From assembly GCA_976226885.1 (NCBI GenBank), contig OZ320319.1, positions 49,910,001 through 49,974,000 of the forward strand: DNA of 64,000 nt. The letters are read 5' to 3'. Of the stretch, positions 37,471 through 57,839 are shown piece after piece. The position numbers and the translations under genes were made by a program. Within the stretch, counting starts at the first letter, position 1, and the number at the start of each line of letters is the position of its first letter. Source of the stretch: Iphione sp. A-MEVVRFRX5 (taxonomy: Eukaryota). The notes beneath the pieces are model-generated. The model was not told the origin of the DNA, did not search any database, and saw nothing but the letters and a program-made list of their open reading frames with translations.

Positions 37471-40094
37471 TTATAATCTTATTCTGTATCTTTGGGGTCG
37501 GGCTGGTGTCACCGAGGCTGGCTCTTCAATTACTTTAGCAACATCAAGTTTTCGGAGAAGGTCGCCGTATGAGGGTGGAGCAGATATTTCTGACTCTGCC
37601 TTTGGGGGAGGGTTGCCAGGTAATGGTGGACAGGTGGGGACTGAGGGAAGTTCCGGATAGATTCCATTCTGAAGTGGTTGGGCCCAACCCTGCTGTCCCA
37701 AGATCACTGTCTGGGAGGGGAGGTCTGGAATTACGCTCATGAGATTGTTAATATGTCTTCCCTTCCAAAGAGGCACATGCACCACTGCGGGAAGCGTAAC
37801 CTTACGGGTTGAAATGTGATCTGTTCGGTAGAGGGGGTTGGAGTACGTAAGGTGAATAGAATAAGAAAGCCAATGCTTCTGTGCCGAGATAGAGGTGACC
37901 TTGGAAACCAGAAAGGTGGTAGAGGGGAGTGCATTATTCCGGAATTCATGAAGAAGGAGGGTGGTGTGGTCCTGAGGCTTTCCTATTTTAAGAAGAATTC
38001 TGAATCCTGGGGGGGATGGGACAGGGCCTGTTCTTGGAGATCTGTGCGTAACAAGTTTGAACACTGTTTGGAGGAATTTGCTCAGAGCCCAAATGCAAAA
38101 TAAAACACTGGCCATCACTTGCATAGTATCCACATGGTCAAAGGTTACTACAATATCTGGTTCAGGCGATGGAGTTGGCTTAGGGGTTGGTCCTAGAATT
38201 ACTGGGGCTGCATGGGTGAGTTTGGAAAGGGATATGAAGAAGGTGATTTTGTTGACTTTCTGTAAAAGAATAAACAGGAAGCCAGCAAGGATCATAGTCA
38301 CTATGGAGTGTACTGAATTCCATACCCAGATGACGGGGCTAGCTATCCCTTGGGCTCGGGAATATAGCCAAGTAGGCCAATGCGCCATTGATCTATCTCT
38401 TTCAATTGCTGCCTGTCTTGCTCTGGCTATATCGTTGGCTACTTTTGTAAGGGCTATACCTGTATTTTTGGGGAGTGATCAGGATAGATTTAGGGAGAGT
38501 TCATCATCGAGTTGTATATTAAAGAAGAATGACTGATTATAGGTAGAGGAAGCTGTGAGGTTGGGAAAGGAAAGGTTAAAGGCTAAGGCTACTGCTAAGT
38601 TAATACTGTGTATAGGGATTTCTACTTGTGTTCTGTTGCAAGCGCTATATGACCGCTTCATGTATGGGCCTACATGGAGGGTGCAATTGCATTCAGGGGT
38701 ATAGGTGCATAAAGGGCAATCTAGGACCTGCTCTTTCCTAGACATTTTGTATGTACCTTGGCTGGCCCTGCTGATATGAGGAAAGTGTCTCCTAAATCTT
38801 TTACATAAGGGGTCATGGGGGAATCGGGGTGCACTGTGAATTGACAGACTTCTTGGGATGGGCATTCTGGTGAGAAGAAGAGGGTTGCTGAACAAAAGGA
38901 TACTGGATCATCATTAACTGGTGGAAGTGACTCGCATGTCAGGACATCATGTCCTCGGCAGCGAGAGATGTCCTGGTCTGATAATTCAATGAAGGAGCGC
39001 TGGTTCTGTGAGATAGAAATATATGCTGGCATGTTTTGTATGTGGGTGTATCCTTGTGTTTTGGTTGCAGAGAAGGGTGTGTTAAAAGAGTGTATGCGGT
39101 AGAGGTCGTGTATGTCTTTTGGAGTTCCCACAGGGACGGCAAGGTGTAAAAACAGTACATTTTCAGTGTACATGAATTGTGCGAGGGCATGCTCGTAATA
39201 AAATGTAGGGTCTCCAACTAGCACTTTTTCTCTTCCCTGTAACTTCTTCTGAACGTTGTGAAGCCCTACTCTTACCTGGTTTGGTGAGACTAAAGCTCCT
39301 GGAAGTTTGCCTACTATTAGATCTCTGATACCTGATGTGAATTTGAGATACTGTTCCCTAAGATCATGCAGATGTATAATTTTTAAGGTGAGCATAGTGA
39401 TGTATGATTGAAGGTGGTATTCAAGGTCGATGTCCTGGGATTGGTTTATTAAGATTTTTCTCAGCTGTTTATTAACCTGCGCTGCACGATGTACTGACTG
39501 TAGTATTGCATCATTCTGGTATTGAATCTGCTGGGTTAAAGTTTGGATGGCTATATTAGTTGTATTTGCCAACATTGAGAGTTGAGTTCTAATGGCATGT
39601 AATTGTTCTGGACCTACTTGTGCTGCCAGAATATCTACTTTGTGTGAGACTTCATTAACATCACCCTCTGTGGCTGTGCCAATGAGGAATTTAGAGGCGT
39701 CTCCCAAAAATCCGAACCATGCTCTTGGCTGTCTACCTACTGTTTGTGATACTGGTGCCATCAGAAGTGAATTAAGTTGGTTTTCCTCATGTCTAACTGT
39801 GTGAAAAAGATCTTGATAGTACATGTTCATATCCCTTATGAGGATTTCTAAGGTACGGCAGGATGGTCGGCGAGTGCATGGGAGCTGGTCCTGTCGTCCA
39901 AATGTCGACATTTTTCTTTGAAGAAATGGTGCTGGTCTAGGGATGACGAAGAGTAGGTCAATGCTTCTTGCATTGGCAAGGAGTGGGTTGGGAACTTTCT
40001 CATATATGACTCCAAGGTTTTGCCGAAGGACATAATTTGTAGGGTGTGTACCAGGGATGACGAAAATGAGGAGCAGCAGGACGAGCCCTTCCAT
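37471..40094 (-). CDS. env: Env, baculovirus F / errantivirus-like class I fusion protein; frameshift at about 38735 and in-frame TGA at 38479-38481
   Basis: Signal peptide, furin-type RQPR (39723-39734) followed by the fusion peptide AWFGFLGDASKFLIGTATEGDV, heptad region, Cys-rich region and TM segments. Confidence 0.88.
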
Positions 40095-40256
40095 GCTGAC
40101 CTGGAATGATATGGTTTAGTTCTTAGGTGAGAATCCTGATTTGATCCGTTTATGTTTTATAATACGTTTTAGAGATTATATTAAAACCAGCCCTCCTGGG
40201 TGATGGGAGAGAAATTATTCTACCACTGAATAACAAGAAGAGTACAAGTGTTGTTT

Positions 40257-42434
40257 TCAAGGCTTTATTATGTCACACTCCAGGCCGAAGAGTGATCTAG
40301 CAAGGGCTTCCTCCATAGCCTGCTGCGCTGCCCGCAAGTTACGTAAGTGCCCGACGTGGTGGCGTTGGGCACGTAGTGCGAGCACGCACAAATAGTTCCA
40401 CTGTTTGTGGTCACCAGCTGGGATGGGTGGGTGATACCCATTCTCCAAAAATTGGACTAACCAGCCCCGGACGCTTTCTGTTGTATTGGGCTGAGTCAGC
40501 CTTAGAGAAAGCGATGTACTCACCCGGGGGGTAAGGTCCAATATGGAGTCCATGAGGAGTGTGGGTGCCGTGGACCAGTTTTGCAGCATGTGGTGCTGCT
40601 GTGTGCCGTCAGGTGCGTGACCCGACCCGAACTGGATGTGGGGTTGGCTTCTGAGTGGCACGCAGGGCTGGTCGTTGGTATGTTGTGTGAGACACCGCAC
40701 ACATATCTTGCGGCGCTCCAGTTCCTTCTGTAGGTGGTTGAGGAAGGCCGCCTCTACCTCTTTAGCTTTATAGGGCCGGTCGGGGTAGTGTGAGCGGAAA
40801 ATGCGCGCATGCTCCTTACCTCGGAGAGTGTCGAGTCCCGGGAGATAATTTGTAATCTCGTGACCCGGTTGCCACATGAGGAGGGGGTGGGAGTTTTGAT
40901 GGGGGGGTTGTGCGGGTGGAGGGAGAAGGGGGAGGTTATTCCTGGGGATTCGACCAAGTCGCGGGATATTTAGGGTCCTGTTAAGGTGTTTCCGACTAGT
41001 ATGGGGGGTGTGGTGGTTTTCTAGCTGTGGGAGTTCATCTTCAGAGGAGGGGGGGTTATCAGTTTTGTTCAGGGCCGCTGGTTGGTCTTCATCAGATTCT
41101 GATGCTAGGGGAGTGCGTCGGTGGCGCCTAGCGGGGGCTGTGGTCTCGTCGTCCGAGTCACTGGCGGGTGCTGGACGGCGGCGGCTGGGGAGGGTCGGTC
41201 GTGTGTCTGTGGCAGGGCTGTGAGGGTGGAGAGGAGTGTCAGCCCTAGGGCTGTTCGCCTCCTTCTCCTGGGTGTCAGGGATGATCGGGGTGTCCAGTTG
41301 GAGCCGGTAGGGGTCCTGATCAGTGGAGGTGGAGGGCTGGGGGGAGAGGGGGCAAGTGGTGAGGGCATTGAGAAGGGCTTCTGAGGGTAGGAAGGAGGAT
41401 GGATCAGCCGTGGAGGTGGAGGGTTGAGGGGAGAGAGGGTGAGTGGTGAGGGCGTTGAGAAGGGCTTCCGACGGTAAGAAGTAGGACGGGTCGGCTGTGG
41501 AGGTGGAGGGTTGAGGGGAGAGGGGGCGAGTGGTGGGGGTATTGAGAGGAGCTTCCGAAGGTAGGAAGGAGGACAGGTCGGCTGTGGAGGTGGAGGGTTG
41601 AGGGGAGAGGGGGCAAGTGGTGAGGGCATTGAGAAGGGCTTCCGACGGTAAGAAGGAGGACGGGTCGGCTGTGGAGGTGGAGGGTTGAGGGGAGAGGGGG
41701 CGAGAGGTGGGGGTATTGAGAGGAGCTTCCGAAGGTAGGAATGAGGACAGGTCAGCTGTGGAGGTGGAGGGTTGAGGGGAGAGGGGGCGAGAGGTGGGGG
41801 TATTGAGAGGAGCTTCTGAAGGTAGGAAGGAGGAAAATGGATTCACATTGGATGTGGATGGGTGGGAGGAATGAGTGAGGGGGGAGGAGCCAGATGCATC
41901 TGCGGGAGACGAGAAGGCTAGACCCACTTTGGGTGCATCATTTTGGGGGATGAGGGTATTAGTGGGGGCTGTGGGGAGAGGGTTGGTGGTTAATGGGCTT
42001 GCTGGTAGGGAGGGGGGGTTTGTGGGGACTGCTGGAGACGTGGAATTCTGGGGGAGGGGGGAGGCTCGGCCAATAGTGGTGGTTGTGCCTGGTTGGGGGG
42101 GAGCAGGGTTGGTAGTGTTATTGGGACCTTTGTGTGTCAGGGGAGGGAAAGAGGATGGAGTAGCTGTTGGTTTGCTCAGCTTAGGAGAGGGGGGGTGTGT
42201 TTGGCCAGCAGTGATGGAGGGTTCTGAGGGGGGGGTGGAAGATGGGTCCGGTTGGGTGGGGGGTATAGGAGTAGGGGTCATTGTGGGATCCGAGTTGTGA
42301 TTTGTCACCCTCTCCATTAGCCTGACCATGTCGCGCATGAGGCCCACAAATGCTGTGCCGGAGCTGGTGAAAGCGTTTCTGACCGCCTTCTCAGCCTCGG
42401 TGAGGAGGGCTTCGGATAGTGTGCGGCCGGCCAT
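40257..42434 (-). CDS. 725-aa accessory protein: Pro/Ser/Thr-rich, 6 x 29-aa repeats, C-terminal CxxC-x3-H-x5-C module
   Basis: Intact ORF with an AG acceptor 2 nt before the ATG; CVRCLTQHTNDQPC. Confidence 0.75.
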   Translation of the reverse strand: MAGRTLSEALLTEAEKAVRNAFTSSGTAFVGLMRDMVRLMERVTNHNSDPTMTPTPIPPTQPDPSSTPPSEPSITAGQTHPPSPKLSKPTATPSSFPPLTHKGPNNTTNPAPPQPGTTTTIGRASPLPQNSTSPAVPTNPPSLPASPLTTNPLPTAPTNTLIPQNDAPKVGLAFSSPADASGSSPLTHSSHPSTSNVNPFSSFLPSEAPLNTPTSRPLSPQPSTSTADLSSFLPSEAPLNTPTSRPLSPQPSTSTADPSSFLPSEALLNALTTCPLSPQPSTSTADLSSFLPSEAPLNTPTTRPLSPQPSTSTADPSYFLPSEALLNALTTHPLSPQPSTSTADPSSFLPSEALLNALTTCPLSPQPSTSTDQDPYRLQLDTPIIPDTQEKEANSPRADTPLHPHSPATDTRPTLPSRRRPAPASDSDDETTAPARRHRRTPLASESDEDQPAALNKTDNPPSSEDELPQLENHHTPHTSRKHLNRTLNIPRLGRIPRNNLPLLPPPAQPPHQNSHPLLMWQPGHEITNYLPGLDTLRGKEHARIFRSHYPDRPYKAKEVEAAFLNHLQKELERRKICVRCLTQHTNDQPCVPLRSQPHIQFGSGHAPDGTQQHHMLQNWSTAPTLLMDSILDLTPRVSTSLSLRLTQPNTTESVRGWLVQFLENGYHPPIPAGDHKQWNYLCVLALRAQRHHVGHLRNLRAAQQAMEEALARSLFGLECDIIKP
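41323..41840 (-). repeat. Coding tandem repeat, 6 x 87 bp (SFLPSEAPLNTPTSRPLSPQPSTSTADLS)
   Basis: GTGGAGGTGGAGGG recurs at 41323, 41410, 41497, 41584, 41671 and 41758. Confidence 0.95.
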
Positions 42435-44009
42435 GACTGAATGCTGTGCAGTGTGGCTGGAATGGTATGTAATGTGCTTATCATGAAAAAGGTATTGCAG
42501 TACAGTGTCTGTTGTCTTTGTGACCTGAGGAGGGCTTCGTGGTGTTTGATTGTAATGGTTATAATATCGTACAGATGCAGTTATCCTATGAACTTTTTTA
42601 TAAACGTTGTGAGTAATTTGAAGTCCATTTATATTGATGGGAAAGGATCTAATAAGGTGCCAAATTTATAGGGGGGGGAACATAACAGGACATTTTAAAT
42701 GGGAGGGATTGAGAAAGATACAGAATGTAATGGGGAAAAATATAATGGTACTGCTTCTCAAATGGGGAGGGTTTGCAGGAAGGGGCAGAATTGAGGGACA
42801 CTGAAGGGCTACTTTTAAGGTGGAAAGAGTGTAAAAAGGTACTGAATTCAATGGGGGAGGGTGTGAAATGGACAGCAATTCGATGGAGAGAGATGTGGAA
42901 TGTGCAGAATTCAATGGAAAAAGACATCAAAATAATACTTGGAATGGGGGGTGCAAATTAAATGGGGATAAGGTGAAGCTTAGGGGCACTTACTAGTTTG
43001 TTCTGAGGAAGAAATCTGTGATGTGAAGATGTACAGGCTGAATATCCTTTCTGATATATTTTGTCCTGCCTTTTTCCTCTCTTTGAGATAAAAAGTGCCT
43101 GGTGGGGGGAAGGCTAATGTGGTGTCCAAGGTGTAGGCCTAGGTAGAAGTGGGGCTGGGACAGTATAGATGGTGACTTTTATATGAAACATGTGAGCAGT
43201 GGTTGTATTGAGGTCTTTATTATCTCTTTGTAACATATTGTACGCATTGATTAGCATGCTTTTATGTGAAACGTTTTGGGTCTTAGAATCTCTGACTTTT
43301 AACAAAGCTGCTGTTCTTGTTTGGTACCCTTTTATGTGAAAACGTTGGGTCTTTGTAAATGTAACTGACTCTTATTCCTAACACAGATGCTCACGCCATC
43401 CTGTTGACTACTATTGTTCACTTAACCGTCATGTTTTCGGCTGTGTGCACTCCTGCCACCTCGTCTCGTTCGTAGTCTGAACAAAAGACACTGTGTTCGC
43501 GCTAGGCAACATGTTTCCTGGCCACTCGCCACATTGTTTCGTCTATAATTCTGACAAAAGACGACGTGTTTGCGCTAAGCGCCACGTTTTTCGGGCGTAC
43601 ATACGTACGCGTGGCTTCATGTTTTTGGTTATTTCATACCATACAGCATTAATTGTTAGGGTTTTTGTCAATTTTTGATTCGACGACAACAGCTTTACGG
43701 CCGTACGCACGAACATACGTACGCGCAGCATCATGTCGACTTCAATCCAAGAATTATGCTTACTTTGTCTCTTTATTCGTCCAAAAACCCTTAGTTTCGA
43801 TTCATCTAAGGGACTTATCCCTTAGTTTCATACCAAAAAGCATTAATTCAGGGTTTTTGTCTATAATTTCGACTCGACAACGCCACAATTCGACCTTATC
43901 CTGGTACCCTTTCCTCGATTTCGTACGAACTTAAGGTATGGGAACCAGAACGAATGTTACTTCCGGTTTGCGGCGTAGTTGTCGAGCATCGATGTTCTTC
44001 CTGAATATA

Positions 44010-44600
44010 ATCAGATTTTAAGAAAAAGCCCAGGCAGTTTCGGCCGAAAACTCAGGTGAATTCGTCAAAACCCAGGTATAATCATCCGAAAATCCGGGAA
44101 ACTCAGGTGAGTTCGTCCGAAAAGCATCAAAACTGAGGTAATTTCGTCTGAAAATCCGGGGAAACTGAGGTATTTTGTGTGAACATTTGCGAAACTGAGG
44201 TAATTTTGATTGAGTTTTGACCAAACTGAGACATTTTTGTGTGAAATTTGGAAAACTTGGGTAAATTTGTGTGAGAATTGCCAAAATCTAGGGGTTTTTG
44301 TGTGAGTTATGACAAAACTTGGGTAAATTTGTGTGAAATATTGCAAAATCTATGGGTTTTTGTGTGAGTTATGACAAAATCTGGGTAAATTGTATGAATT
44401 TTGACAGAAACTTATGGGTTTTTGTATGAGTTTTGATGAAATCTGGGTAAATTTGTATGAAATTTTGGCAAAATGTATGGGTTTTGTATGAGTTTTTGAA
44501 GAATCAGGGTAAATTGGTATAAAATTTGGCAAAAACTTATGGGTTTTTGTACGAGTTTACCGGCAAAGTGTGGGTAAATTTGTATGAGATTTGGCCAAAT
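44010..44600. repeat. Degenerate non-coding minisatellite, about 25-31-bp units
   Basis: AAAACTCAGGTGAATTCGTC-type units grade into alternating AAAACTTGGGTAAATTTGTGTGA and AAAATCTATGGGTTTTTGTGTGAG units. Confidence 0.8.
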
Positions 44601-44838
44601 TCGGGGACCTTGGTGGATACGAATACTTTTAGTTGAATAAAGACGTCTTTTGCTGATTAGGAATGTTTTTAATAACCCTGAGCATAGACATATGACAGAA
44701 AGAGGAGAGGATTCTTTTGCAATTATGCTATGAAAATGTCCTTTTGTAGTAGAATATTTATGACTCTCTATGAGAGGGATGAACGCCACTGTCTGTTTGT
44801 TCCTTATTCTTAGTGTTTGTGCATATATACATATATTT

Positions 44839-45375
44839 TCAGTCCTTGTCCTTTTGGTGGCGTGGTGAACGTGGAATCCCCGCTGCAATGATGTTCATTT
44901 CTGGGGTATGAGAGGAGTAGCAAGATGTGTAGGTGAGTACTCCCTTCATTGCCACTGCCTTATGACGGTCAGCAGAGGGGGATATGATTGGGATGTGCTG
45001 GTAACTGTGTAGTGTCACCATGACAAGGGTGTCCCATGCGGGCAGGAAGTGTGTTGGGAGGTTTGGCTCCTTACGGGTGTGAAAATAGTTTGTAACCAGT
45101 TGTATCACCCCTAGTTGTACAAGGGTGCAGTTTAGGTTAAAGAACCGCCCCTCCTGCCAAGTGGGTAGGATGACTCCCATGTGAGTGTCAGTTAGTCGTG
45201 CCAGTCTGTCTAGCATCCAGAATCTTTCCAAGGGGGTTATGTCAGGGTGCCGGATCCCTGTTTTCTGGCCAAATAATACGCTAATGAGGGCGGGATCACA
45301 GTCTGCAAGGGTAGGCTTGTCTCCTTACAGAATGGATTGGGCCCTTCTTGTAGCTCCGGTGTAACGTCCCATCAT
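44839..45375 (-). CDS. Accessory paralog 4 (178 codons, in-frame TAA at 45325-45327)
   Basis: MMGRYTG...SIL*GDKPTLADCDP...GIRHPDITPLERF...PAWD; same length as paralog 3 and colinear with it. Confidence 0.75.
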
Positions 45376-45759
45376 GACCTGGAGTAAGAGTGATTTAGAG
45401 AATAACAACTCCTTGCTTAGGGAATTCTGGGTGTGGAGGGTGGATGGGTGGGGAGTGGCCTGAAGACCAGTGCGGTCATAAGGTGTGTGGATTCTAAACC
45501 AAAGCATCATAGGGGGGTGGGTGCATGGGCCTAGGCGGAGGGGGTTGGCAGAGGGTCGGGGCACCTAGGGGGTTTTTACGTCAGTTTTTGATGACCATTA
45601 GGGTTGGCCTGTGTAAGGTGTTGTGTGAATCCTGGGTAGGTTTTTGGCAAAACTCAGTAGAGACATTAACTGTTGGTAGATTTGTGGTTTGTGAATAATT
45701 TTATCGTCACTTCTGTAGAATGTCAGTCATATGTTGAGATAATAAATAATGTCCGGTAT

Positions 45760-46296
45760 CTAATCCCAGATTTCTAGGTCTGGTGGTGTGATGGGTCTAC
45801 CCGCCGTTAGGAGGTTACTGTGTAGCAGTGTGGGCGTGTAGCAGTGCACGTATGCACGTACTGCTTGTATGGCCGCCTCTCTGTGGGGCTTCCAGTTGTA
45901 GGGGCCGATTGGCCAGCGCTGAAAGTGGTTCAGCATGACCATTACAAGGGCATCCCAGGCAGGTAGAAAATGTTCTGGTAGGTTCGGCTCCCTTTGTGTC
46001 TGACAGTATGTTACCAATAGTTGAACCAGGCTTATCTGCACAAGGGGAGAGTCCAGATTGAAGAATTGGTTTCCCTGATAGCCGGGAAGGACGATTCCCG
46101 TGTAGGTATCTGTTGTGTAAGCCAGCCTGTTGAGCATAAGGAATCGTTCCAGGGGCGTGATATCAGGGTGGCGGAGGCCTGTTCTCTGTCCAAAAAGTGC
46201 ATTGACGAGGACCGGTTCGCAATCCACAAGGCTCGGTTTAATGCCCTGTAGTACAGCTTAGGCTCTCGTGGTGGTTCTAACGTAGCGACCAGTCAT
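45760..46296 (-). CDS. Accessory paralog 3 (178 codons, in-frame TAA at 46258-46260)
   Basis: MTGRYVRTTTRA*AVLQGIKPSLVDCEP...GLRHPDITPLERF...PAWD...REAA. Confidence 0.78.
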
Positions 46297-46454
46297 GTCC
46301 TGAAGTAGATATTTGAGAGTCATATTAAACTTCTGTGGGTGGTGTCTAAGGTCTAGAGGAATGATGGGTGGAGGGGGGGGGGGTTTGAGAATTGAGGATG
46401 GGATTTCAGGGAATCTTGTTACCTATGTTACTGGCATATGCTGAGGGTTCCTCT

Positions 46455-47009
46455 CTAAGGGATGTTTGTGGTTGTATCCCATTCATTGTCATCATAGGTG
46501 GGTGTTGGGGGGTACAGGCCCGCGTATAAGAGGTTGTGGTTAACCATGTGTGTAGCTGAAGTTTTTTGCATATATGCGCACAACCCTTTTACTGCAGCCT
46601 CCCGCACGTGGTCTGTGGCCTGTGATAGTCGGGATGTCATCCGCAGGGCTCTGAAGGCCTCTACGGCTAACTGGTCCCATACTGGACAGAGGTGTGCTGG
46701 GAGAAGTGGTTCTTGTGCAGTCCTGAGGTAACGGGCGAGGACCCGTACGATAGATAGCTGCACCAAGAGTGAGCCTAGGTTTAGGAGTGTTCGTTTCCAG
46801 GGGAGAACAACTGCCCCAAGGGAGTCAATACGGCTCGCAAGGTGTTGCAGTAGCTCATAGCGCCGAAAGGGTGTGACCCTAGGATGACGTAGGCCCCTAT
46901 CAGGCTGGTAGAGACCCAGGGTCAGACGTGATATGCAGTCCTCGATCTCAGGCATTGCTCCATCTTGAAGTTCCCGAAGTCGGGTGGATACTTCGTCATA
47001 AGTATTCAT
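46455..47009 (-). CDS. Accessory paralog 2 (184 aa)
   Basis: DRGLRHPRVT...PVWD...REAAVKGL. Confidence 0.82.
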   Translation of the reverse strand: MNTYDEVSTRLRELQDGAMPEIEDCISRLTLGLYQPDRGLRHPRVTPFRRYELLQHLASRIDSLGAVVLPWKRTLLNLGSLLVQLSIVRVLARYLRTAQEPLLPAHLCPVWDQLAVEAFRALRMTSRLSQATDHVREAAVKGLCAYMQKTSATHMVNHNLLYAGLYPPTPTYDDNEWDTTTNIP

Positions 47010-48932
47010 TTTCTGCAGAGGAAGGGTAGAGATCTTATATCTGGCATGGTGGATGAGAGTTTAGGGGGGTAGCTATCCATGGGCGGGGGTTAATTAGTTG
47101 CTACCGAGGTTCTCTCTCCAAGGAGATCAGGGGTGGGGGTCTTTTTATACTTCTGATATTACTCGGTAGGTTAAGGTCATAAGGAAGCTTTTTGGTGTGG
47201 GTGTTTGGGGTCATTAGTGGCCAGCCTTAACCCAGGGATCGGGGTTGTTTAGATGAGGTCATTTGTTTACATGATAACAGCTGTGGTCTGGCAAAAGGGT
47301 GTTGGAGGAAAAGACGTGGCCGGAATGCACGCGTGTCTTTGGCCGCGGGTGATTGAGTTGATCATTTGAGAAGGGGCAGCAAGAGAGGGCAGTCTAGCAA
47401 GGTCACAAAGGAGAAAAAGGATTATGGACAAAGGACCAAGTTGTTGGGAATTAGTGACTGCCATGATGGCGGCATTGGTGCTTGGCATGCATAGGAACGT
47501 AATCAAGGAGGATATTCCTTTGGAGGGTAAGTTTTACTTTTTTCACCCAGGTAACTTTTTCTGAGAAGGGGGGAAGGATGAGGGGCCCTGCTACGCTCTG
47601 TCAGGCCAATGGGTAGTGGGAAGTGAGGTGGGGGCTGCCACTTTTACTTTGGTGATAGTTGTTATTAATGCTGCCTTGCTAATTCATCCCCTATTACTTT
47701 TTGCAGAAGTTGTGGTGATCCCGAATGCTGGGAGCGGGATTTGTAGGCAGCGTGTAACCAGCGAGGTGCCAGATAGGACAGACCGAGAGGCTGCCTGATC
47801 TCTGGGCCGTATCGGATGTGTGTGATCCCGGTGGTTTTGTAGTAGCCTAGTTTTGGGATGCTTTCTCAATATTAATAGTGTGCCGTATGGAGAATAAATA
47901 TTTTTTGTAAACCTGTGTCTCTTTTTTTGTTTTTTGTTTTTGTTTGAGTTGCCGCTATGAAACAGGAGTTATTAGATCGTATTGCCGAGGTTCTATAATT
48001 TTCTTCCTTAAGATGTGTACCATTCATAGAAAGTCAAGAGTCTTCTTGATGCCAATAGTTTATTACCATAAAGCCCATTAATAACTCTTCTACATTTGTT
48101 TATATTTGACTACAGTATGATTTTGGTTATTCAAATGTCTACGTAGAGGTATATCGGATCCTGCCACCATAAATGTTTATAAGTGTTATACGTTGAGTAC
48201 TTTGATAATACACATAGAATTGCATATATGTTGATAATATTTCCAAAGAGAGTAGCCATGCTCCTACTTTTACAGTGTCCTTCAGTCTCGCATTATTGGT
48301 ATGGAGACATCTGACATCACTATCGGAGGAACTTCACTGCCTTGACTCCGACCATGTGGCTACCTTCTGGGAGAAGGGCTGTGTTGGTAAGTGTCGCCCC
48401 ATCTTGCGGTGGGGTGTTCGCGTCGGGTCACAGATGGTGGCCAGGTGTCTCCTTTCGCACGGAGTGACTCCCGATTGGGCTAGTGTTTCTAACCACATAA
48501 TGAGTCCTTTCACCATTTACTAATTCTACAGTCACTACAATGTTTTTCTTGGGTGGTCTTGTTGTCCAGGGGCGTTCCAGGCTTGTCAGTGAGAGCTCAT
48601 TCAGGACTCTGTGCTACGTGGAGATTCAAATTCCCATTCCTGTTCCACGGGGACGGGTAGGACGGGGCGTTTGGATCTGATGGCCTCAGTTGATGAGAGC
48701 CTGGCGGCCGGAGAGTCGACTGCCAGTAGAACGGGGTGTTTGCACCTGACGATGTCGGTTGATGGGCGTTTGGCGTCCTGAGAGTTGGGGACCAGTCGGG
48801 TGGGGCTCTGGTATGTTGTTCCGGTGCGCTGGGTGGGTTTGCGTTTCCTGTGCCATCTGGGAGTGTGAGAGCGACGACTGGGAGTTTGGTGAGTCCCAAC
48901 TTCTCGGGAGACGGTATTGCGGCGTTTGGGCG

Positions 48933-49652
48933 TCAAAGATCAGTCTGAGCAGGGACTGGATTCTCCTCTGGAACGGGTTGGTGAGGCGGCTCGTGAACGG
49001 GTAGGCCTGGCGGGACGGGGGGGGTGATATCCCGGGAGGATGAGATATCCCTCTGGGGTGAGCCATCCCCGCGGGGTGAAGTATCCCGTCGGGGCGAGAT
49101 ATTCCCGCGAGATGGGGTATCTTGGCGGCGTGGGTAGTGCGCCTTGGGGGATCGGTACAGGTTGGCTGCCAAAATGTCCATGCGTGCAGGTATATGGGAG
49201 GTCCTCTTCATGTATTTCCCGAGGGCTCTCACGGCTGCTTCTCTGGCCTGACTCGTGGCCAGAGAGAGCCCGACAGTGGATCGGAACTCTGCAAGGGCCA
49301 CTGTCACTAGACTGTCCCAAGCGGGGTAGTACTTGGGCAGCATAGGAGGTGTCTGATGGTCCTTGAAGTAGGCCATGAGCATGTCGTCCACCGTAAGCTG
49401 GGCCATTGGGTATTCTAGGTCGTAGAAGTTGCCTTTCCAAGGGTGAAGCACTGCGCCCGTTGCTTCTACGGTGTAGGAAAGGTGCCACATGAGCTCGTGT
49501 CGATACCCGTCTGTGACTCTGGGGTGGCGGAGCCCTCTGTCGGACTTGAAGAGCTCGGGGGTAAAGGCCGGCATGCAGTCTCCTGGGATCGGCAGCGCCC
49601 CTTGGAGAAGGAGTGACTGCTGCTCTCGGATTTTCACATACCGGCCTGCCAT
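48933..49652 (-). CDS. Accessory paralog 1 (239 aa, with an R/S/P-rich tail)
   Basis: MAGRY...DRGLRHPRVT...PAWD...REAAVRAL, followed by ISPR/TSPR repeats. Confidence 0.82.
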   Translation of the reverse strand: MAGRYVKIREQQSLLLQGALPIPGDCMPAFTPELFKSDRGLRHPRVTDGYRHELMWHLSYTVEATGAVLHPWKGNFYDLEYPMAQLTVDDMLMAYFKDHQTPPMLPKYYPAWDSLVTVALAEFRSTVGLSLATSQAREAAVRALGKYMKRTSHIPARMDILAANLYRSPKAHYPRRQDTPSRGNISPRRDTSPRGDGSPQRDISSSRDITPPVPPGLPVHEPPHQPVPEENPVPAQTDL

Positions 49653-50339
49653 AACCTGCGAATGTTGAGATAGAGAGAGATGTGAGAGATCTCTTCAACT
49701 ATTCGTAGGATTTTGAGAAGGGCCATACTACAAAAGATAGAGAGGGGTGCATGTTTTGCTAATCCCAGGTTCTCATGGGTGGGGTTTCTTGTGACGCCCA
49801 GTATTTCTATTGGGGGTTTCGTATCTCTAGGGGGGGTTCAAGCCACCAAGATGAAAGCTCCCAAATGGAGGTTTCTACAAAGGGAGTGCCTTTTGGGAGA
49901 AGGGTGAGCTACTAACTCTATGGGTGAGGTGAGAATCAGACTGGATTAGTGCAGGGCAAGACGAGTCTTGGATGGCGGCCCCTTTATTTTGAAGCCCTGT
50001 CGGCAAGCCTTAGGAGTTATGCTGGGGATCTTTTGTGGTGAGTGTTTGTGTTGATTGCAGGTGTGAGGTCAGATACTGCAAACTACCTTGGGGGTCTGTG
50101 TATAAGCCTCCTATTGACTCCTCACTCAGGGCAGAGGTAGCTAATCTCTGCTACTGTCTTTGAGTCATGTACCTTTTTCGCTTGGAGGTAGGGGAGTAAC
50201 CAGATTTGAGAAAAGGCAAATTACTAGGCACTGTACATGTGGGTTGGCTTCTTTCTGGTAGCCTCTTTTTCCTATTTTCCTTCATGAAGAAGGGCTTTAT
50301 TGATGAGTGTGGACTCCTTCATCCAATTCTAAATTCTTT

Positions 50340-50675: not shown

Positions 50676-51026
50676 GGTACTATATCTCATAGTCCTGTTT
50701 ACCTCATTTTACTTCCTTACTTTAAGCTGCGTACATGTGCATGTGGACGTCCATTCATATGTTCGTATAACTTTTAGATTCCTCTTCTTATTCTTGTTCA
50801 ACATTGTGGGCTTTTTGCCTGTACTCCTGCATTATAATCAAGGGGAGGGGTCATAATGGCTCTGATGGGAGCACATCTTCCCTGCAAGATCTTGCCTTTT
50901 TATCTGTTGTTTTTAGAATTACGCCTTTCTCTTAGAGGTGTTCCCACCTTGGTTCTTTGGAATAACATTACTTATAGGAAAAAAAGGGGGGTTGCTGAAG
51001 GGTCTGACAAGGGTTCTCTTGCCGTC

Positions 51027-54000
51027 TTAGGTTTTCTTCCCTTTGCGCCTTGTTTGCAGAAGAGACGTCCAGGTGGCAGCGTCCCACCACCGTTTCGGCC
51101 TCCTCTTAGTACGCTGTGGTCGGATTACCTTTTGGGGACATACTGGGGGTTGGTTGATGGTATTGGATTCCGAAGAGTTTGGATTAGGCCCGATGATGAC
51201 CTTAGTGTCTTTTCCAGGGTGATCTTGGTTGGCTTGTTCTATTATGATCTTGTCTGGGTTGGGAGGTAAGTTGAGGCGCTCCAGTCTCACAACAGGGTCA
51301 AGTTCACTTAGGCCCGCCTCTGTCTGACGTGGGCGTCGGGGGGCAATAGGGGGATGAACTTGTATCTTGAGGGGATGCCCGGGTCTTAGCTGCTGAAGGG
51401 GGTCATCCCCTATTTTATCAGAGAATGCATCTTGAGCTTTGCTTTGTGAGCGTGTTACGGGTCCCTCTGTTTGTGTTCTGGGGGTTTCTGGTATTACAGG
51501 CATGGAGAACTCTGAGGGGCCCTCAGATTCTTCTTCAGAAAGGGCAGGGGACTCACTGGAAGATTTAGAGTCTGAGAGCGGGGGAGAAGTGGGAGAATTG
51601 GACCGAGATGGAGCTGGGGTTTCAGGGTCTTCACTCGATACATCTTGGGTTGTTGGATGGCTTGCATTGTGGACTGATCTTATAATAGGGTGGGTACGTT
51701 CATGTAAACTTTGTGAGGTAGAGGGAGTCTCAAGGGGAGGACCCTCATTCTGAAAGGGGGATGAGGCATTTGAGGCAGGTGATATGTCATCTTCAGGGAA
51801 TTCCTCGTTGGTGCTAGGGATAGCAGATATAGTTTTCTTTAGCCTGCTGATGGTTACTGGTCTGGCCAGATGTCTTTTAGTTTGAAGGCATTTCAAAAAG
51901 ACAGTAGAGTCAGTCTGAAATCGGGTAATGGCATAAGGTCCATGGTAGACCTTGGCCAGTTTCAGTTTGAGTGAGCTGTCCTTTAATTTAGGCATGTATA
52001 CCCATACTACATCACCCACCTGGAGATCCGGCTTATAGGTGTGCTCATCATGTCTTGCCTTCATGGCTAGGGCATATTTCTCAGAAGTCTTTTGTGCAGC
52101 CTGATGAGCTTCTTGTTGGGCCTGCAGGTGGGCCCCGAATCTTTGTCGTGTGTCCATTAATTCATCTTCGGAAATGGGAATGGAGTTCATTTCGGGACGG
52201 CGGGGTTCATACCCGTTTAGGAGGAGATAGGGGGTCTGGCCTGTGCGGGTGGCCTTTGTGGTGTTTAGAGCAAAACATATTCCAGGGAGGTAACAATCCC
52301 AGTTGTTTTGGTCTTTGCTAACATAATTTCCCAAGACAGTCAGAAGCGAGCGGTTGGCCCGCTCGACCAAGCCTGAGGTCTGGGGATGACCTGCCGTAGC
52401 AAATTTCTGTTTGATTCCGTTTTTCCTACAATAATTCATAAATCTATCTGAGATGAAGGCTGAACCATTATCTGAGACTATAGTATTGACTACACCAAAA
52501 CGGTAAACAATATGTTCTTTAAATTTAGAAATAAGAGTATCTGCTCGGAGATCAACTTGTGCCCATGCTACTAGGAATCTGCTATAGTAGTCTACTATGG
52601 TAATGATATGTCGGTTTCCTCTCTTGGTGAGGGGGAGTCTTTCGATGGCATCCATATTAATGGTATGCCATGGTGCTGGCGTTGGATCTCTCAAGGTTAG
52701 AGGGGGTCTTATAGGGCGTGTCATACGTTTGGTTTCGGAACATTTGATACAAGTGGCGCAATACTCGTGCACATCTTTGCTCATTCCAGACCAAAAGAGT
52801 GACTCTCTCATTCTGGTAAGCATTTTTACTGGGCCCAGGTGTCCTGCATGTGGAGGGTCATGATTCTGTTGGAGAAATTGTTCCCTAAGTCCCATGGGGA
52901 CAATAAGTCTGACATTTGTTCTGGCATTAGGTCCAGTGGTTGATGACATTCTAAAGAGAAGCCTTTTATAAAGAAAATAGTCTTCTTCATGGAGCAGAAT
53001 TTCATGCGCCAGTTTGTCGTCCTTTGGGCGTATCCCATATTTGATGAATCCAACTGTCTGCTGACAGAAGGTATCATCTTTTTGCTCCTTAAGAAGATCT
53101 TCAATGGGTATGTGTGATGAGTTTAGATGTTTCTCTGCCCCAGAGTGAAGGACAAATTGTCTTTCTCTTCTCTTACGGTGCTTAGGTTTGTTAAGAAATT
53201 GGGGAGTCCCTGACTTACTGGTGGTATGAATAGCGTTTGCTTCTAAGGGCTTAAGCTTTTTATCTCTGGGTTTCCTGCTGGGAGGAGGACAGGGAGGCTC
53301 TTTGTCAGGAGGGGTGTCGAGCCGAGAGAGGGCATCGGGGACATAATTGGAGGTCCCTGCTACATGTTGGACAATGTAGTCAAACCGTTGGAGGAATTCC
53401 ATCCATCGGATAACTCGGCTCTCTTTATGCTCTAAGGATTTTGTAACTAAGATATGAACGAGAGGGTTATGGTCAGTTTGGATGGTGAACTTGGCTCCTT
53501 CTAAATAAACTTGCCAGTGCTTGACTGCGTAAAAGACAGCAGCCATTTCCTTGTCTGTCGTGGAGTAATTAAGCTGGGCTCCTTGAAAGGCTTTAGCCCA
53601 GTAGGCTATTGGTCTAAGATTTCCTTCCCAGTCTTTTTGTGACAAGCTGGCGCCCATTCCATAGTTACTGGCATCAGTGGCCAAAAAGAATTCATCATTA
53701 AAGTTTGGGTAAAGAAGAAACTGTTCATCGGTCAGGGCTTCCTTAAGTGTTTGGTATGCTTCCTCTTGTTCAGGTCCCCAGAAGAATTTTGTACTCTTTC
53801 TTGATAAGTCATAGAGGGGTTTGGCTTTAAGGCCATAGCTGGGGATAAATTTTCTATAATAGCCAGTCATTCCTAAGAATCGGCGTACCTGGCGGACTGT
53901 GGTTGGAGTATTCATTTCTTTTATTTTCTGAGTATTGTCAGGAGAGGGTTTAATGCCTTCAGTGGTTATAATGTGACCTAAGAACTTGACTTCTGAGTGC

Positions 54001-56213
54001 CCTATCTCACATTTATGAGGGTTTGAGTTTAAGTCCTGCCTCGATTAATTGGTCAAAGACTTCTCCAAGGTCCTGCATATGTTGCTCAAATGTGGGTGAA
54101 AAGACTACTATGTCATCCATATATGCCAAACAGATTTTATACTTTAATCCTGACAGAACTAAATCCACTACACTTTGAAAGGATGCTGGAGAATTTTTAA
54201 GACCCATAGGCATAGTTTTGTAGCGGTATTTTCCTGAAGGGGTGAGGAAGGCTGTTTTATCCCTGTCCTCATCACGAATAGGGATCTGATGGAAGCCCAT
54301 CTCTAAGTCCATTACAGAAAGAAATTTAGGTTTGGTGTGCCCGATTGCGTCTATAGTATCATCTACCCTGGGGATAGTAAACATCTGTGTGACCGTTTGT
54401 GTATTTAGATTTCTATAGTCAACTACTAATCTGAACTTTCCATTAGGTTTTGGCACTAGAAAGGCTGGGCTAGCCCATGGGCCGTCCCCTGCTCTTTCCA
54501 GTATATCTTTTTCTTCCTGATCTGCTACTATTTTGTCAAGTTCCTCCCTCATTCGGGGGGACATGCGGAAGGGTTGTGCCTGTGTTGGGAAGTGGTCTGG
54601 TTTTAATTCAATCCTATGCTCTACCAAGTGGGTTCTTCCTATGTCTCCCTGTAAGACGAATGCTTCTCTCTTGGATAAGAGGAGATTGTGACAAATTGCC
54701 TTTTGTTCATGGGTGAAATTGGAATTAGATAGGTCAACTGGTATATTCAAAGAATTGGTGTTGAGGGAATTTATTTGTGTCTGTGCAGGCATGATGTTTG
54801 TATAGGGGTTTCCCTTTGTAAAAGTTCCTACTCGAAATCCTTTCTTTAGCTGTTCTGGGCGGGAGGAGTAATTTAAAACAGAATAGGGATACGGTTGTCT
54901 ACAACCTTCACAATAGCTTCCTTATTGGTTCTAAGGTTTCGGGGGGTCGATGACAAGGTGTCCGTATACAGGCCTTCGTAGGGGTCTAGGGAATCCCCCT
55001 TCCCAAGGATCTGTCCCCATAAGAGGGTTTCTGTTCCAGGTTGAAGGAGTATATCCTCAGGAAGGGCGACAGAGTATTGGGTAGGGGTTTTAAGGCCAAA
55101 GGAGAGGTTCATGGAAAATTGATGCAAAAATGATCGACCTAGGATGATGTCATAGGAAAGTCCAGGAACCACGTGTAGGGAAACAGGGTAGGTACTATCA
55201 TCAATGGGGATGGGCAGGTGAACTGTCCAGGGAGATCGGGAGACTGTCCCATTAGCCATAACACATTCTGTTTTAGAGGGGGAAAGGCGTATGGGGGCCC
55301 CACCATCTTTTAACTGGTTAAGGGCTTTTAGGCTCATACAGCAACCTTCCGCTCCTGTGTCTACAAGGGCTGTGAACACAAGGCCTTCTATAGGGATTTT
55401 GGTAGTGCTATTGCCTGTCAATGAATGGCGAATCAACTCCCCATCACCAGTGGTAGTTTTACTCGTTCTAGATAAAAGGATCCCTTGGTTAGGTACATGC
55501 CGTGATTGGGCAACAATAGAAAAAATTTCTTTGGTTTTTGGAGGGAAGTTAAAGTCCATATAGAGCTGGTGATGTTCTATTTCTTCAGGGAGGATCCAAT
55601 GCTCAACATGCAGAGGACAGGCAGGCACCCTATTACATCTAGGTTTAAGTGTTTCTCTATTGACTTCCCTACTCCAGTATGAGACCTGTCTTGTTACACA
55701 TGCTTCTAAGGTTCCACAGTTTGGAACATCACAGGTACCATTCTGGTGTTCTAATATTCTCCAATGTAACAATGTAAGTACATGATATTCTAAACTATTA
55801 ATACATAAATTATCAACAATTGCACAATCACATTTCATTTGGATAGATAAATCAGGCTTAAGCTCAGAAATGCATATACATCGGTTAGGACAATGAGTAC
55901 AATCAAAACGTATACCTCTATGACCATTGTGGACTTCTACCATATGGTCCACAGTCTTAGCTTGAGTCTTTTTCTGGGAGGGCTTCCCTGGGCAGAGAGG
56001 ATGTGATTTCAGCGTTGTATATACAAGGTTCTTAACCCAACCCAAGTTTTCCTCGGGTAGACGAGGGTAAGGTTTAGATAAGATTATACACAAAAATTTC
56101 TTCCCCGGTTCAGGTGAACTGGAGTCCTTAAGGTTTACATTGGTCCCTTCGTCTGTCCGGGATGTCAGTGACTCCCAATACTTGGGTGATTTGGGAGTCT
56201 GGTCTAGTTTCCC
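51027..56213 (-). CDS. pol: Gypsy B pol (Cys/His-rich domain, protease, RT, RNase H, integrase); 1-bp frameshifts at about 54875 and 54020
   Basis: LVDTGAE; WASPAFLV...YMDDIVV; LATDASNYG...DALSR; HHCC; DAIE/SDNG/ERANR; GPY. Confidence 0.95.
56170..56213 (-). promoter_or_regulatory. -1 programmed ribosomal frameshift signal (G_GGA_AAC, 7-nt spacer, 9-bp hairpin)
   Basis: The in-frame heptamer (56207-56213) lies directly before the gag TAG. Stem GACTCCCAA/TTGGGAGTC. The -1 frame is open into ORF 54873-56093. Confidence 0.85.
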
Positions 56214-57795
56214 AGGTGGGGGAAATTGGCCCCACTGTAGCGATCATGGTCCCCACGGGTCCGTTCTATGGGGCGGTTTCTGGGGGCGCCTCTATCTTCC
56301 CATGGCTGCGGGGGAAGACGTCTCAGTGGTTGAGGAGAGGCGGACCGGTAGGGCTGGGATTGAGGGCCCCTATTACGAGGAGGGTGATACTTTTGCTGAG
56401 TGTTTTGGGGATATTGGGGCCTTCTCCCCCGTGGTCCTCTCCCTCTTTCAGAGCGTTGTGGAGGAGGGCGGGCACGTTCTTCCATGTCCCGTCTCTTGGT
56501 GCGACATTCCCTAGCATAGTGTCCCCTTTTCTGGCAATAATAGCATGTTAGGTTGGACTCAGGAGGTAAAGGATCTGAGACTGGTTGGGTTATGTTGGGA
56601 GGGGGACGGGTGGTACCCCCAATTGTTCTCAAGGTGACTGCTGCTATCTCACTGGGGAGTTCTTTCATTAGTTCCCTTTTAAGGGCATCTACTACTGCCT
56701 CCATTTTTGAGATCCTTTTACGAAACCCTCCCTGGGCATGCCATGCTTCTCTGGCATCCTGGACTGCCTTATCAAAAAGGGGACTGTCCGCACCTTCATA
56801 GATTCCCTTAATTCTGGGAGTATATTTTCCATAAAAATTCTTCCTGCCAGCTCATCACTATCATGTCCTGCAGCTACACAAACTTTCATGAGCCTATCTG
56901 CAAACTCAGAGGGATGTTCATCTGGTCTCTGCTTAGTGGCACGAAGCCTATCACCCAGTTCTATTGGGGGCGGTCCCTTTTGTTCTATCAAGAATTTCCT
57001 TAGCTCATCCCAAGTGGGGTGAGCCTCTATATAAAGGTGGGCAGTACGGGGGAGGAAGGCTCGAGCCTTTCGGTAGCAATATTCTTTCCAGCCATCCCGT
57101 GCTGCTCCACCCTGTCCTCCCTCTTGAGGATTAGGATTCTCTTCCCCATAGATGTCCTTAATGTAGTCTTCATACTGGTGTACCCAGTCTACTACTTGAT
57201 AGGGGTCAGAGGGGAACATACCTGGTCGTTTAGGCATAATAGTCAGTCTTTTAGCAAATGCTTCAATCATACCCTCATCTGCCATGTTTCTTAATGCACG
57301 TTGCCCTTCCCTGACATTTATAAGGTTACCACTTACTGGTTGTTGAGTCGGGTAGGATGGTGTAGGCTGGGGTGTACGCGTTGGCGGCTGTCGTGATGGG
57401 CCTGGTTGGGGCTGATGGAGCTCTAGTGACTGTCTGGAGGTAGAAGGATGTGGCTCTGGTAGAAGTAGAGTCCTATGTGGGCCTGGTTGAAGGACCGATG
57501 ATGGTGCCCGGGGTGTTGTAGTGGCTGGAGATGAAGGGGATGTTGGGCCTTGTTGTGGAAGACTAGGAGGAGTGGACCACGCTGTGGGCGAAGTTGACCG
57601 TCCTGGTGGCGAGAAGGATGGACGTCGCTGGCTTGGAGTGACTGGTAGTTGCAGGGGCGTCCGAGGAAGGCTGGTTGAAGATTTACCAGATGAGATGCGC
57701 CCTCTTTCTTGAGACCTGCCTTGTCGGGTGGCACTGGAGGTGAGCCTGTGCTTGGCAGTGAGACTTCTCGTGGTAGGTCGGGAGATATGAGCCAT
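56204..57795 (-). CDS. gag: Gypsy B gag (P/S-rich N-terminus, capsid, CCHC); 1-bp frameshift at about 56775
   Basis: LRATKQRPDEHPSEFADRL is capsid-like; CYYCQKRGHYAREC zinc knuckle. Confidence 0.9.
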
Positions 57796-57823
57796 GCACT
57801 AGTACTGCCAGGTGGTGAAGTTA

Positions 57824-57839
57824 CCCGGGTTCTCCACCA
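57824..57839 (-). promoter_or_regulatory. Primer-binding site, tRNA-Ala-like
   Basis: TGGTGGAGAACCCGGG starts 1 nt after the 5' LTR; the first 10 nt are complementary to a tRNA-Ala 3' end (UUCUCCACCA). Confidence 0.6.

Follow-up and report, generated by a model that had tools for sequence, protein, structure and literature searches.

Complex vertebrate retroviruses are distinguished by accessory genes expressed through splicing, avian retroviruses carry a splice donor inside gag, and env-carrying Gypsy elements have been described as three-gene elements. The "ancient errantiviruses" are env-carrying Ty3/gypsy elements of non-insect animals, annelids included (PMC13524379). That survey, the broadest one, admitted POL-ENV gaps of at most 1000 nt, regions of at most 10 kb, and LTR distances of at most 14 kb, so that elements like the one described here would mostly have been filtered out; the accessible part of its main text never mentions splicing. 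The env mRNA of Tor3a offers a precedent, being spliced from a donor close to where gag begins, according to the accessible part of PMC4402516. Here we describe Gypsy B, a 23.3-kb element within a 64,000-nt stretch of Iphione sp. DNA (the window), in which five extra ORFs (A–E) precede env and lie in the 11 kb between pol and env.

Architecture and class of Gypsy B

Gypsy B is of the Ty3/Gypsy type; its env is F-type, and its primer site is for tRNA-Ala (Table 1). Its pol domains follow the order PR-RT-RH-IN (Pfam), and it has the paired LTRs, tRNA primer site, polypurine tract, and short target duplication of that class; the nearest matches to its RT (66%, 53%, and so on) are unnamed. The LTRs end in TG...AA rather than TG...CA, differ by 7 mismatches over 688 nt of their unique part, and are flanked by a 4-bp duplication, AGAT (58949-58952 and 35609-35612). 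A −1 frameshift site for Gag-Pol is conserved. Transcription is predicted to start about 25 to 30 nt downstream of the TATA-like box, and the 3′-LTR copy of AATAAA (35701-35706) would terminate genomic and env RNA. The gag-pol-env layout with an F-type envelope agrees with a broad-sense errantivirus (F-type or gB-type envelope): the Baculo_F profile scores above cut-off both in the window copy and in an open 894-aa relative, env in open relatives being 894 to 898 aa long. We rejected membership in the Retroviridae, given the Baculo_F type of env and RNase H profiles of LTR-retrotransposon type.

Table 1 Features of Gypsy B in the window, in transcriptional order.
Feature	Position	Strand	Remarks
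5′ LTR	57841..58948	(-)	TG...AA ends; U3 with ~24.5-nt tandem repeats
TATA-like box, LTR promoter	58243..58249	(-)	about -400 from PBS; retained in 9/11 copies
LTR poly(A) signal	57929..57934	(-)	AATAAA in 11/11 copies
Primer-binding site, tRNA-Ala(AGC)	57822..57839	(-)	18 nt
gag with zinc knuckle	56204..57795	(-)	broken across two frames in window copy
gag leader, modeled common first exon	57337..57795	(-)	153 low-complexity codons
Candidate splice donor, A/GTAAGT	57331..57336	(-)	phase 0 in gag
pol, PR-RT-RH-IN	51027..56243	(-)	three frames in window copy
Acceptor (first exon base 49655) and ORF A (ATG 49652)	48933..49657	(-)	
Acceptor (47012) and ORF B (ATG 47009)	46455..47014	(-)	
Acceptor (46299) and ORF C (ATG 46296)	45760..46301	(-)	
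Acceptor (45378) and ORF D (ATG 45375)	44839..45380	(-)	
Acceptor and ORF E (ATG 42434)	40257..42458	(-)	725 aa
Internal poly(A)-like signal, AATAAA and U/GU-rich tract	40264-40269 (AATAAA)	(-)	
Small conserved stem-loop before env	40215-40233	(-)	3′ of internal AATAAA
Acceptor (40100) and F-type env (ATG 40094)	37471..40102	(-)	three pieces in window copy
Polypurine tract	36820-36826	(-)	
3′ LTR	35613-36819	(-)	

A candidate splice donor within gag

An earlier note on this DNA had proposed that one 5′ donor is spliced to at least six acceptors, with GTAAGC in the LTR (58096) and GTAAGT in gag (57336) as candidate donors; all eight motifs it quoted, six acceptors and two donors, lie where it had placed them. 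The gag candidate precedes an internal strong-context ATG (57285) by 51 nt, and GTAAGT recurs at this same distance in 18/18 copies of four diverged families, which are related, so that copies are not independent observations for this or any other donor or acceptor count. It is in phase 0 in 15 of the 18 copies, the remaining three having leader indels, and is unchanged in all 11 aligned copies though their flanks diverge. Matches from family 3 have GT at this site in 100/100 cases and the full GTAAGT in 98/100. The LTR candidate is confined to the window copy and the two copies closest to it (3/11) and is absent from the sister subfamily; we rejected it (58091..58096, minus strand) as the main donor. 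A third donor-like word, GGTAAC at 57824, was also discarded, its resemblance to a donor arising because it is part of the 18-nt primer-binding site.

Both codons at the gag donor (GTA, AGT) are identical across the four families, silent positions included; in RT, conserved four-fold codons are identical in 13/71 cases and six-fold codons in 7/50. At the protein level, the residues encoded at the donor and beyond it show partial conservation (V-S-x-x-L/F), which may account for part of the invariance. The leader upstream has a weak ATG context (T at −3 in 18/18 copies), and no further ATG lies between its start and the donor: four representatives contain no internal ATGs, against 3.1, 2.4, 1.9, and 3.6 expected. 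Its dN/dS of 0.22 to 0.28 indicates that the leader is under purifying selection.

Candidate acceptors and accessory ORFs

Acceptor-like motifs were compared with 350 control sense-strand ATGs between the LTRs, where a YAG ends 2 to 6 nt upstream in 62 (18%) and at exactly 3 nt in 12 (3.4%). A strict rule (YAG, at least 18 nt free of AG, and at least 60% pyrimidine) is passed by 7 of these 350, one being the second Met of ORF D, and by none of 20 starts of long ORFs in the rest of the window, 4 of which have any YAG. The acceptors of ORFs A–D satisfy this rule; the previously proposed E site (AG-free 5 nt, 55% pyrimidine) and the env acceptor of the window copy (19 nt, 50%) fail. In the C-rich 3′ half, another 49 YAG sites would qualify as acceptors by a rule based on sequence only. 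Counting A–D, E, and env as three events, a hand calculation puts chance occurrence at about 0.18^3 = 0.006.

The YAG stands 3 nt before the ATG in 12/12 copies of ORF A and 5/5 of ORF C, and the AG of ORF D is retained in 11/11. The spacing of "exactly 3 nt" holds for these three ORFs; B has it in 5/12 copies and a 2-nt spacing in 7/12. An upstream deletion removed the B acceptor in two degraded copies (L014, L016). The sister subfamily lacks ORF C and, at ORF D, has a U-tract and a branch-like CTAAC motif. The acceptors are also present in families 3 and 4, and ATGs linked to acceptors have a purine at −3. Estimates of dN/dS were 0.26 for A, 0.13 for B, 0.15 for D, and 0.19 for the C-terminal part of E; all accessory ORFs show purifying selection. 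The window copy itself has premature stops at codon 13 of C and codon 17 of D.

ORFs A–D are paralogues (pairwise identity, 30–51%), and their 3-nt spacing is therefore partly inherited, one acceptor-plus-ORF cassette having been duplicated; related families in this one genome carry one, two, three, and four such paralogues. Inheritance of this kind, combined with coincidence, could in principle explain the motifs altogether, YAG-RNN-ATG being a start context, as the nearby YAG at 18% of ordinary ATGs allows, and GTAAGT encoding a Val-Ser protease site, the peptide there being one that we take to resemble retroviral protease sites. We regard this as extremely improbable. Between two of the families, at a dS of about 1 to 2 (neutral divergence), the acceptors are retained, their noncoding AGs and pyrimidine tracts persisting while spacer bases vary; E and env are unrelated to A–D; neither donor codon varies at its silent positions in the four families; and five selected ORFs plus env would lack a route to translation were there neither splicing nor internal promoters.

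An acceptor directly 5′ of each ATG is also the usual signature of leader trans-splicing, by which, as in operons, a spliced leader would resolve a polycistronic RNA. We give this very little credence for Gypsy B: the host is an annelid by its mitochondrial gene order, and Dimorphilus is reported to lack spliced leaders and operons, "similar to other annelids" (PMC7854359). A leader trans-spliced operon was accordingly rejected, the cis donor in gag being conserved and the host being an annelid with no leaders on report.

ORF E, which contains an 87-nt repeat, encodes a protein rich in Pro, Ser, and Thr; its C-terminal domain is conserved, and the ESM Atlas gave no usable match to that domain. 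A role in the nucleus, regulating the export or processing of RNA, is a doubtful guess. The ORF E acceptor proposed earlier (42436) is subfamily-specific. With the AG that is conserved in the alignment, the exon would instead begin at 42456, 22 nt rather than 2 nt upstream of the ATG, with 42443 and 42436 as alternatives. At env, the acceptor TCATTNCAG stands at −6 in 14/14 copies.

These offsets bear on a more elaborate splicing pattern, with extra donors (at the U5 end or inside A–E), doubly spliced or fused products, and Gag-leader fusions as the main proteins. A phase-0 donor with offsets of −3 (A, C, D) and −6 (env) preserves the frame, and purifying selection acts on the leader. Donor-like words do occur near the U5 end in families 2 and 3, but at nonhomologous positions. 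Sister-subfamily B and the second paralogue of family 4 (both −2) are out of frame with the donor, as is the conserved E site in all families examined, and each out-of-frame ORF retains a strong ATG. In family 4, the clearest E acceptor lies about 82 nt upstream of the next ATG, with another ATG preceding it; such distance from any ATG would suit the elaborate pattern, which we nonetheless judge quite unlikely. The position of this family-4 site is not accounted for by a one-donor model.

Searches for homologues of A–D returned none in Pfam or word-index searches, by profile against 1.84 billion proteins, among PDB sequences (best E 0.26), or in viral contigs, and only weak helical-repeat look-alikes in the ESM Atlas. 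A structure model (pLDDT 86) gave a best fold match of Z 3.6 (rmsd 4.2 over 90 residues) and no match in a viral library at E ≤ 0.001; these collections contain few annelid repeats, and their blanks denote neither absence nor a new fold. The same family, with its acceptor, is carried by a CACTA-like DNA transposon. This element has the CAC...GTG inverted ends and 2-bp target duplication of CACTA/EnSpm-like elements (both ends in three copies, the left end in a fourth), and a 723-aa antisense frame, a possible CMC-type transposase, with Plavaka and DUF4218 matches below cut-off. A tree of the family revealed no direction of exchange between Gypsy and the TIR element. Because a nonenveloped DNA transposon carries the family too, A–D might be guessed to oppose host silencing or to have chromatin, not the particle, as their target, a tentative idea that makes the family a candidate anti-silencing factor.

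Between E and env, the internal AATAAA lies 39 to 59 nt upstream of the stem-loop in 12/14 copies, spanning all four families. The stem-loop was considered as a tRNA remnant and rejected, the three genomic matches examined not being tRNAs, and Rfam yielded nothing for it. Its loop is TCAGT, an initiator-like core conserved 128 to 185 nt upstream of env, which raises the alternative that each ORF, or env at least, has an internal promoter and a short 5′-UTR intron ending at the observed acceptor; the gag donor would then serve one product only, or just suppress 5′ LTR polyadenylation. The internal promoter of foamy viruses is an analogue, and the A–D family keeps its acceptor in a DNA transposon, where the gag donor is unusable. 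The accessible parts of two papers also describe an internal promoter for Tor3b/4b env (PMC4402516) and U1-dependent suppression of 5′ LTR polyadenylation by the donor in HIV-1 and foamy viruses (PMC12789967). However, the TATA-like words that the window copy has upstream of B and env are lost in the sister subfamily, the variable AATAAA-to-TCAGT distance is unlike fixed TATA-initiator spacing, the hairpin that holds TCAGT covaries, and no GTAAG donor-like word 3′ of pol recurs in the four families when position lists, rather than alignments, are compared. We consider internal promoters unlikely, if the least improbable of the alternatives.

Proposed expression and comparison with known systems

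We therefore favor, as the probable reading of these sequences, one donor, alternative acceptors, and leaky scanning past a weak upstream ATG. One LTR promoter would yield a single primary transcript, which if unspliced would serve as genomic RNA and as mRNA for Gag and Gag-Pol. The single, slightly suboptimal gag donor would be joined to one of six acceptors (A, B, C, D, E, env). The first exon of each spliced mRNA would then contribute a sole long-ORF ATG in weak context, and ribosomes scanning past it would initiate at the strong ATG just downstream of the junction. Offsets divisible by three, as at A, C, D, and env and, in the window subfamily, at B, would also permit a Gag-leader fusion. 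Accessory mRNAs would probably terminate at the putative internal poly(A) site, with env and genomic RNA reading through to the 3′ LTR. The earlier proposal of one donor and at least six acceptors thus gains from the conservation of donor and acceptors and loses its E site and LTR donor; splicing itself we infer.

A donor-spanning query found no spliced retro-copies among the 40 best-scored of 796 genomic candidates; in family 3, the 40 scored of 898 were all full-length, and no genomic match to the family-3 leader end had anything other than GT after it. None of the deletion break points in three copies coincides with a splice site. Rare spliced retro-copies with an altered leader end may exist.

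If splicing holds, genome complexity arose separately in a Gypsy lineage, and tandem copying of an acceptor-plus-ORF cassette is a visible route to it. Gypsy B offers exact, testable predicted junctions, as well as an orphan protein family that is abundant, subject to purifying selection, and common to a retroelement and a DNA transposon. A joint reading would go further: an invertebrate Ty3/Gypsy element independently evolved a full complex-retrovirus transcription unit, with a gag-internal donor, up to six acceptors, two poly(A) sites, and genes added by cassette duplication; the duplicated protein is an undescribed helical fold, exchanged with DNA transposons and anti-silencing; and some proteins, Env in particular, are Gag-leader fusions. 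Taken whole, this reading seems to us less likely than not.

The following comparisons rest on the accessible parts of the papers cited. Gypsy B resembles the ancient errantiviruses in its gag-pol-env order, PR-RT-RH-IN domains, F-type env, LTRs, tRNA primer site, and many young copies, but differs in the 11 kb and five extra ORFs from pol to env (PMC13524379). Elements longer than 20 kb or with extra post-pol ORFs are known, namely Burro, Ogre, rotifer elements (PMC6431247), and mdg1-group sORF2 (PMC13486581); however, Burro packs its extras into one polyprotein, Ogre has one or two extra ORFs and very long LTRs (PMC6431247), and sORF2 is a single small fusogen never found together with env (PMC13486581). 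Tor3a of Oikopleura makes one spliced product from a noncanonical donor (PMC4402516), whereas the donor of Gypsy B is canonical, lies 153 codons into gag, and would serve up to six acceptors. Cer1 of Caenorhabditis elegans is likewise a Gypsy element with a spliced accessory protein, CERV, a consensus acceptor 5′ of its ATG, and an intron-containing genomic RNA that must be exported; CERV, however, is encoded in five exons and has sequence in common with Gag, in contrast to the separate, duplicated, single-exon ORFs between pol and env of Gypsy B (PMC10309623). Searches of the main texts of openly accessible papers turned up no annelid Gypsy element with several spliced accessory ORFs. Gypsy B is a new, complex variant among env-carrying Gypsy elements, one that would work like a complex retrovirus without belonging to the Retroviridae. 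With the lentiviruses, deltaretroviruses, and foamy viruses, it would share one promoter, one major donor, several acceptors, and accessory genes 3′ of pol, and it is set apart from them by its Ty3/Gypsy pol, its baculovirus-F-type env, accessory genes that are tandemly duplicated and unrelated to known ones, and a putative internal poly(A) site before env (PMC12789967).

The element, its relatives and its accessory genes

This element belongs among the Ty3/Gypsy elements that carry env. Its LTRs (both approximately 1.1–1.2 kb) are accompanied by a 4-bp target duplication, a polypurine tract and an 18-nt primer site matching host tRNA-Ala(AGC) genes; their unique parts differ at 7 of 688 bases, and the insertion is therefore young. 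Pfam matches (zinc knuckle, protease, RT, RNase H and integrase) follow the Ty3/Gypsy order, env is of the baculovirus-F type, and a GGGAAAC slippery site lies at the gag end in four of four families. The window copy has gag, pol and env broken across frames and early stops in C and D; open frames for these same genes were found in other copies. The repeats after the pol stop are candidates for a role in RNA export or packaging.

Searches of the host's own genome returned many relatives, and the regions around 24 were fetched (12 + 6 + 6). Twenty hold Gypsy copies and four a different element. The Gypsy copies form four families: the window's, with A, B, C, D, E and env; a sister subfamily with A, B, D, E and env; and two others (families 3 and 4) with one and two paralogues, respectively. 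Three internally deleted derivatives (L065, L056/L055 and L062) lack pol, or E and env, but still have the LTRs, leader and donor together with some of the accessory genes. A–D are paralogues (30–51% identity); their tree supports A, B and C/D groups, the branching order of these groups being without support. Between the window family and its sister (dS 0.7–2.3), dN/dS was 0.26 for A, 0.13 for B, 0.15 for D, 0.19 for the E C-terminus, 0.09 for env and 0.03 for RT. Judged by these low ratios, the extra ORFs are real genes, and there must be some way for them to be translated. The cysteine–histidine motif of E and the basic clusters upstream of it suggest zinc and nucleic-acid binding.

The A–D family is abundant in the genome (at least 150 matches, scored among 4267 candidates). 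Modeled from 17 sequences, it is confidently predicted to be mostly helical (pLDDT 86, pTM 0.82), and fold searches with the predicted structure returned no match. A second carrier, a TIR element whose inverted ends are CAC...GTG and which has 2-bp duplications, an antisense transposase-like frame and a further low-complexity ORF (406–426 aa), is present in about nine copies of near-identical score among the matches listed. Its family member (38–48% identical) has a strong acceptor at −3; the tree does not support a direction of exchange between Gypsy and TIR elements.

Features of the element, the second carrier of the A–D family and the rest of the window (L-numbers, genomic loci)
Feature	Position	Strand	Remarks
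LTR element	58948 to 35613 (23.3 kb)	−	
U3 tandem units	58395–58925, 36167–36760		~24.5 nt, each an imperfect palindrome; number unequal between 5′ and 3′ LTR
Three ~78-nt repeats	50334–50684	−	internal inverted repeat; directly after pol stop
31-nt tandem array	44129–44626		between D and E; also a repeat in sister subfamily
87-nt coding repeat	41236–41921		within ORF E
C-x2-C-x3-H-x5-C motif	about 40700–40760	−	conserved C-terminal domain of ORF E
AATAAA, GU-rich tract, covarying stem-loop	40215–40269	−	between E and env
CACTA/EnSpm-like TIR element, ~14 kb	L075:7209 to L077:2090		also L093–L095, L096–L098, L108–L109
Polinton/Maverick-like gene cluster	about 7300–24800	−	A32-like ATPase (weak), C2H2 protein, 930-aa frame, unannotated ORFs
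Its integrase with chromodomain	14049–15227	−	
Second Gypsy-like element, broken	27173–31258	+	RT at 29189–29809
piggyBac-type DDE_Tnp_1_7 transposase fragment	32112–34194	+	
369-aa ORF	61462–62628	−	GC-rich sequence beyond 5′ LTR; no Pfam match

Candidate splice signals in gag and upstream of the downstream ORFs

The earlier note proposed that one donor, in the LTR (58096, GTAAGC) or in gag (57336, GTAAGT), is alternatively joined to at least six acceptors. The LTR candidate, present in just 3 of 11 copies, was dropped, whereas the gag candidate was unchanged in all 11 aligned copies with diverging flanks. The latter was found in 18/18 copies across all families, each time 51 nt upstream of an internal ATG; in 15 of these it is in phase 0. 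The set comprises those fetched copies in which the primer site and the leader ATG are both present, leaving outside one primer-site match lacking that ATG and one family-4 copy lacking the region. Among family 3 matches with at most two mismatches, the GT was kept in 100/100 and the hexamer in 98/100. Identical codons are uncommon at conserved RT residues of four representatives (13/71 four-fold and 7/50 six-fold sites), so that both donor codons would stay identical by chance with a probability of ~0.03 (hand calculation from the RT rates). Against a donor, the residues encoded at this site show partial conservation at the protein level, and GT is preceded by A where the consensus is G. A donor-like word at 57824 was rejected as the end of the primer site.

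All motifs quoted in the earlier note, for the acceptors of A–E and env and for both donors, were found where it had placed them. An AG-free zone of at least 18 nt with at least 60% pyrimidine precedes A–D, 7 of 350 other sense-strand ATGs and 0 of 20 control ORF starts; the proposed E site and env lack it in the window copy. YAG lies 2–6 nt upstream of 62 of those 350 ATGs, and exactly 3 nt upstream of 12. The acceptor AG is kept in 12/12 copies for A (at −3), 12/12 for B (five at −3, seven at −2; not counting two degraded loci, L014 and L016, with a deletion upstream of B), 5/5 for C and 11/11 for D. Because A–D are paralogues, their shared spacing does not represent four independent events; with a 3-nt spacing, the G of AG|G could also serve as the purine at −3 that makes a start context strong. 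In the sister subfamily the U-tract upstream of D is longer and accompanied by a branch-like word, CTAAC; the paralogues of families 3 and 4 are preceded by pyrimidine tracts with YAG at −3, −3 and −2. Six bases 5′ of the env ATG, TCATTNCAG is present in 14/14 copies, which represent all four families; the six bases in between vary. For E, the −2 site first proposed occurs only in the window's subfamily; the aligned AG lies 22 nt upstream of the ATG in the window, making 42456 the first exon base, and other copies have it at −5 or −8. The best E acceptor of family 4 is ~82 nt upstream of the next ATG, which the model does not explain.

With the donor narrowed to the gag site and the E site moved, the original interpretation is partly supported: this conservation strongly implies that the element is spliced, and coincidence is scarcely credible. 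Internal promoters driving the downstream ORFs, for which Tor3b/4b env is described as a precedent in the relevant passages of PMC4402516, are unlikely; the TATA-like words upstream of B and env are not conserved. The host mitochondrial contig carries its genes all on the same strand, arranged as nad2-cox1-cox2-cox3 ... nad6-cob-atp6-nad5-nad4L-nad4-rRNAs-nad1-nad3. We take this to be the annelid ground pattern, and hence the host to be an annelid. Since annelids are reported, in the part of PMC7854359 concerned, to lack leader trans-splicing, and a cis donor is conserved, we consider that route highly improbable.

Translation and 3′ ends of the predicted mRNAs

The leader, from the first gag ATG to the donor, spans 243–465 nt and is under selection (dN/dS 0.22–0.28); in undamaged copies its length is divisible by three. 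It holds no further ATG in any of four representatives (1.9–3.6 expected in each). At −3, its own ATG has T in 18/18 copies and the acceptor-linked ATGs a purine. Ribosomes would pass the leader ATG by leaky scanning and start at the acceptor-linked ATG. Sister-subfamily B, E and one paralogue of family 4 do not share the donor's reading frame, which makes leaky scanning the simplest reading that fits all cases. For A, C, D and env, in-frame Gag-leader fusions are possible; a more intricate splicing pattern that yields fusions as the main products is unlikely, somewhat more so than internal promoters.

Between E and env, AATAAA and then a U/GU-rich tract lie 39–59 nt 5′ of a small stem-loop in 12 of 14 copies, from all four families; of the element's non-coding 70-nt windows, 32 of 534 contain AATAAA. 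Both-sided changes at 3 of 12 predicted pairs among eight related sequences give modest support for the structure, whose loop may resemble a tRNA D-loop. We read AATAAA and its tract as a putative internal poly(A) site, which would end the accessory mRNAs.

Comparison with known systems

A survey covering Ty3/Gypsy elements that carry env limited the pol–env gap to 1000 nt, and its main text does not discuss splicing (PMC13524379); the relevant passages of PMC12460157 add nothing on annelids. As described in parts of the respective sources, Tor3a (PMC4402516), Cer1/CERV (PMC10309623) and sORF2 (PMC13486581) are precedents with a single product, and Burro and Ogre reach large size by other means (PMC6431247). 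The present element is predicted to function like a complex retrovirus, without itself being one.
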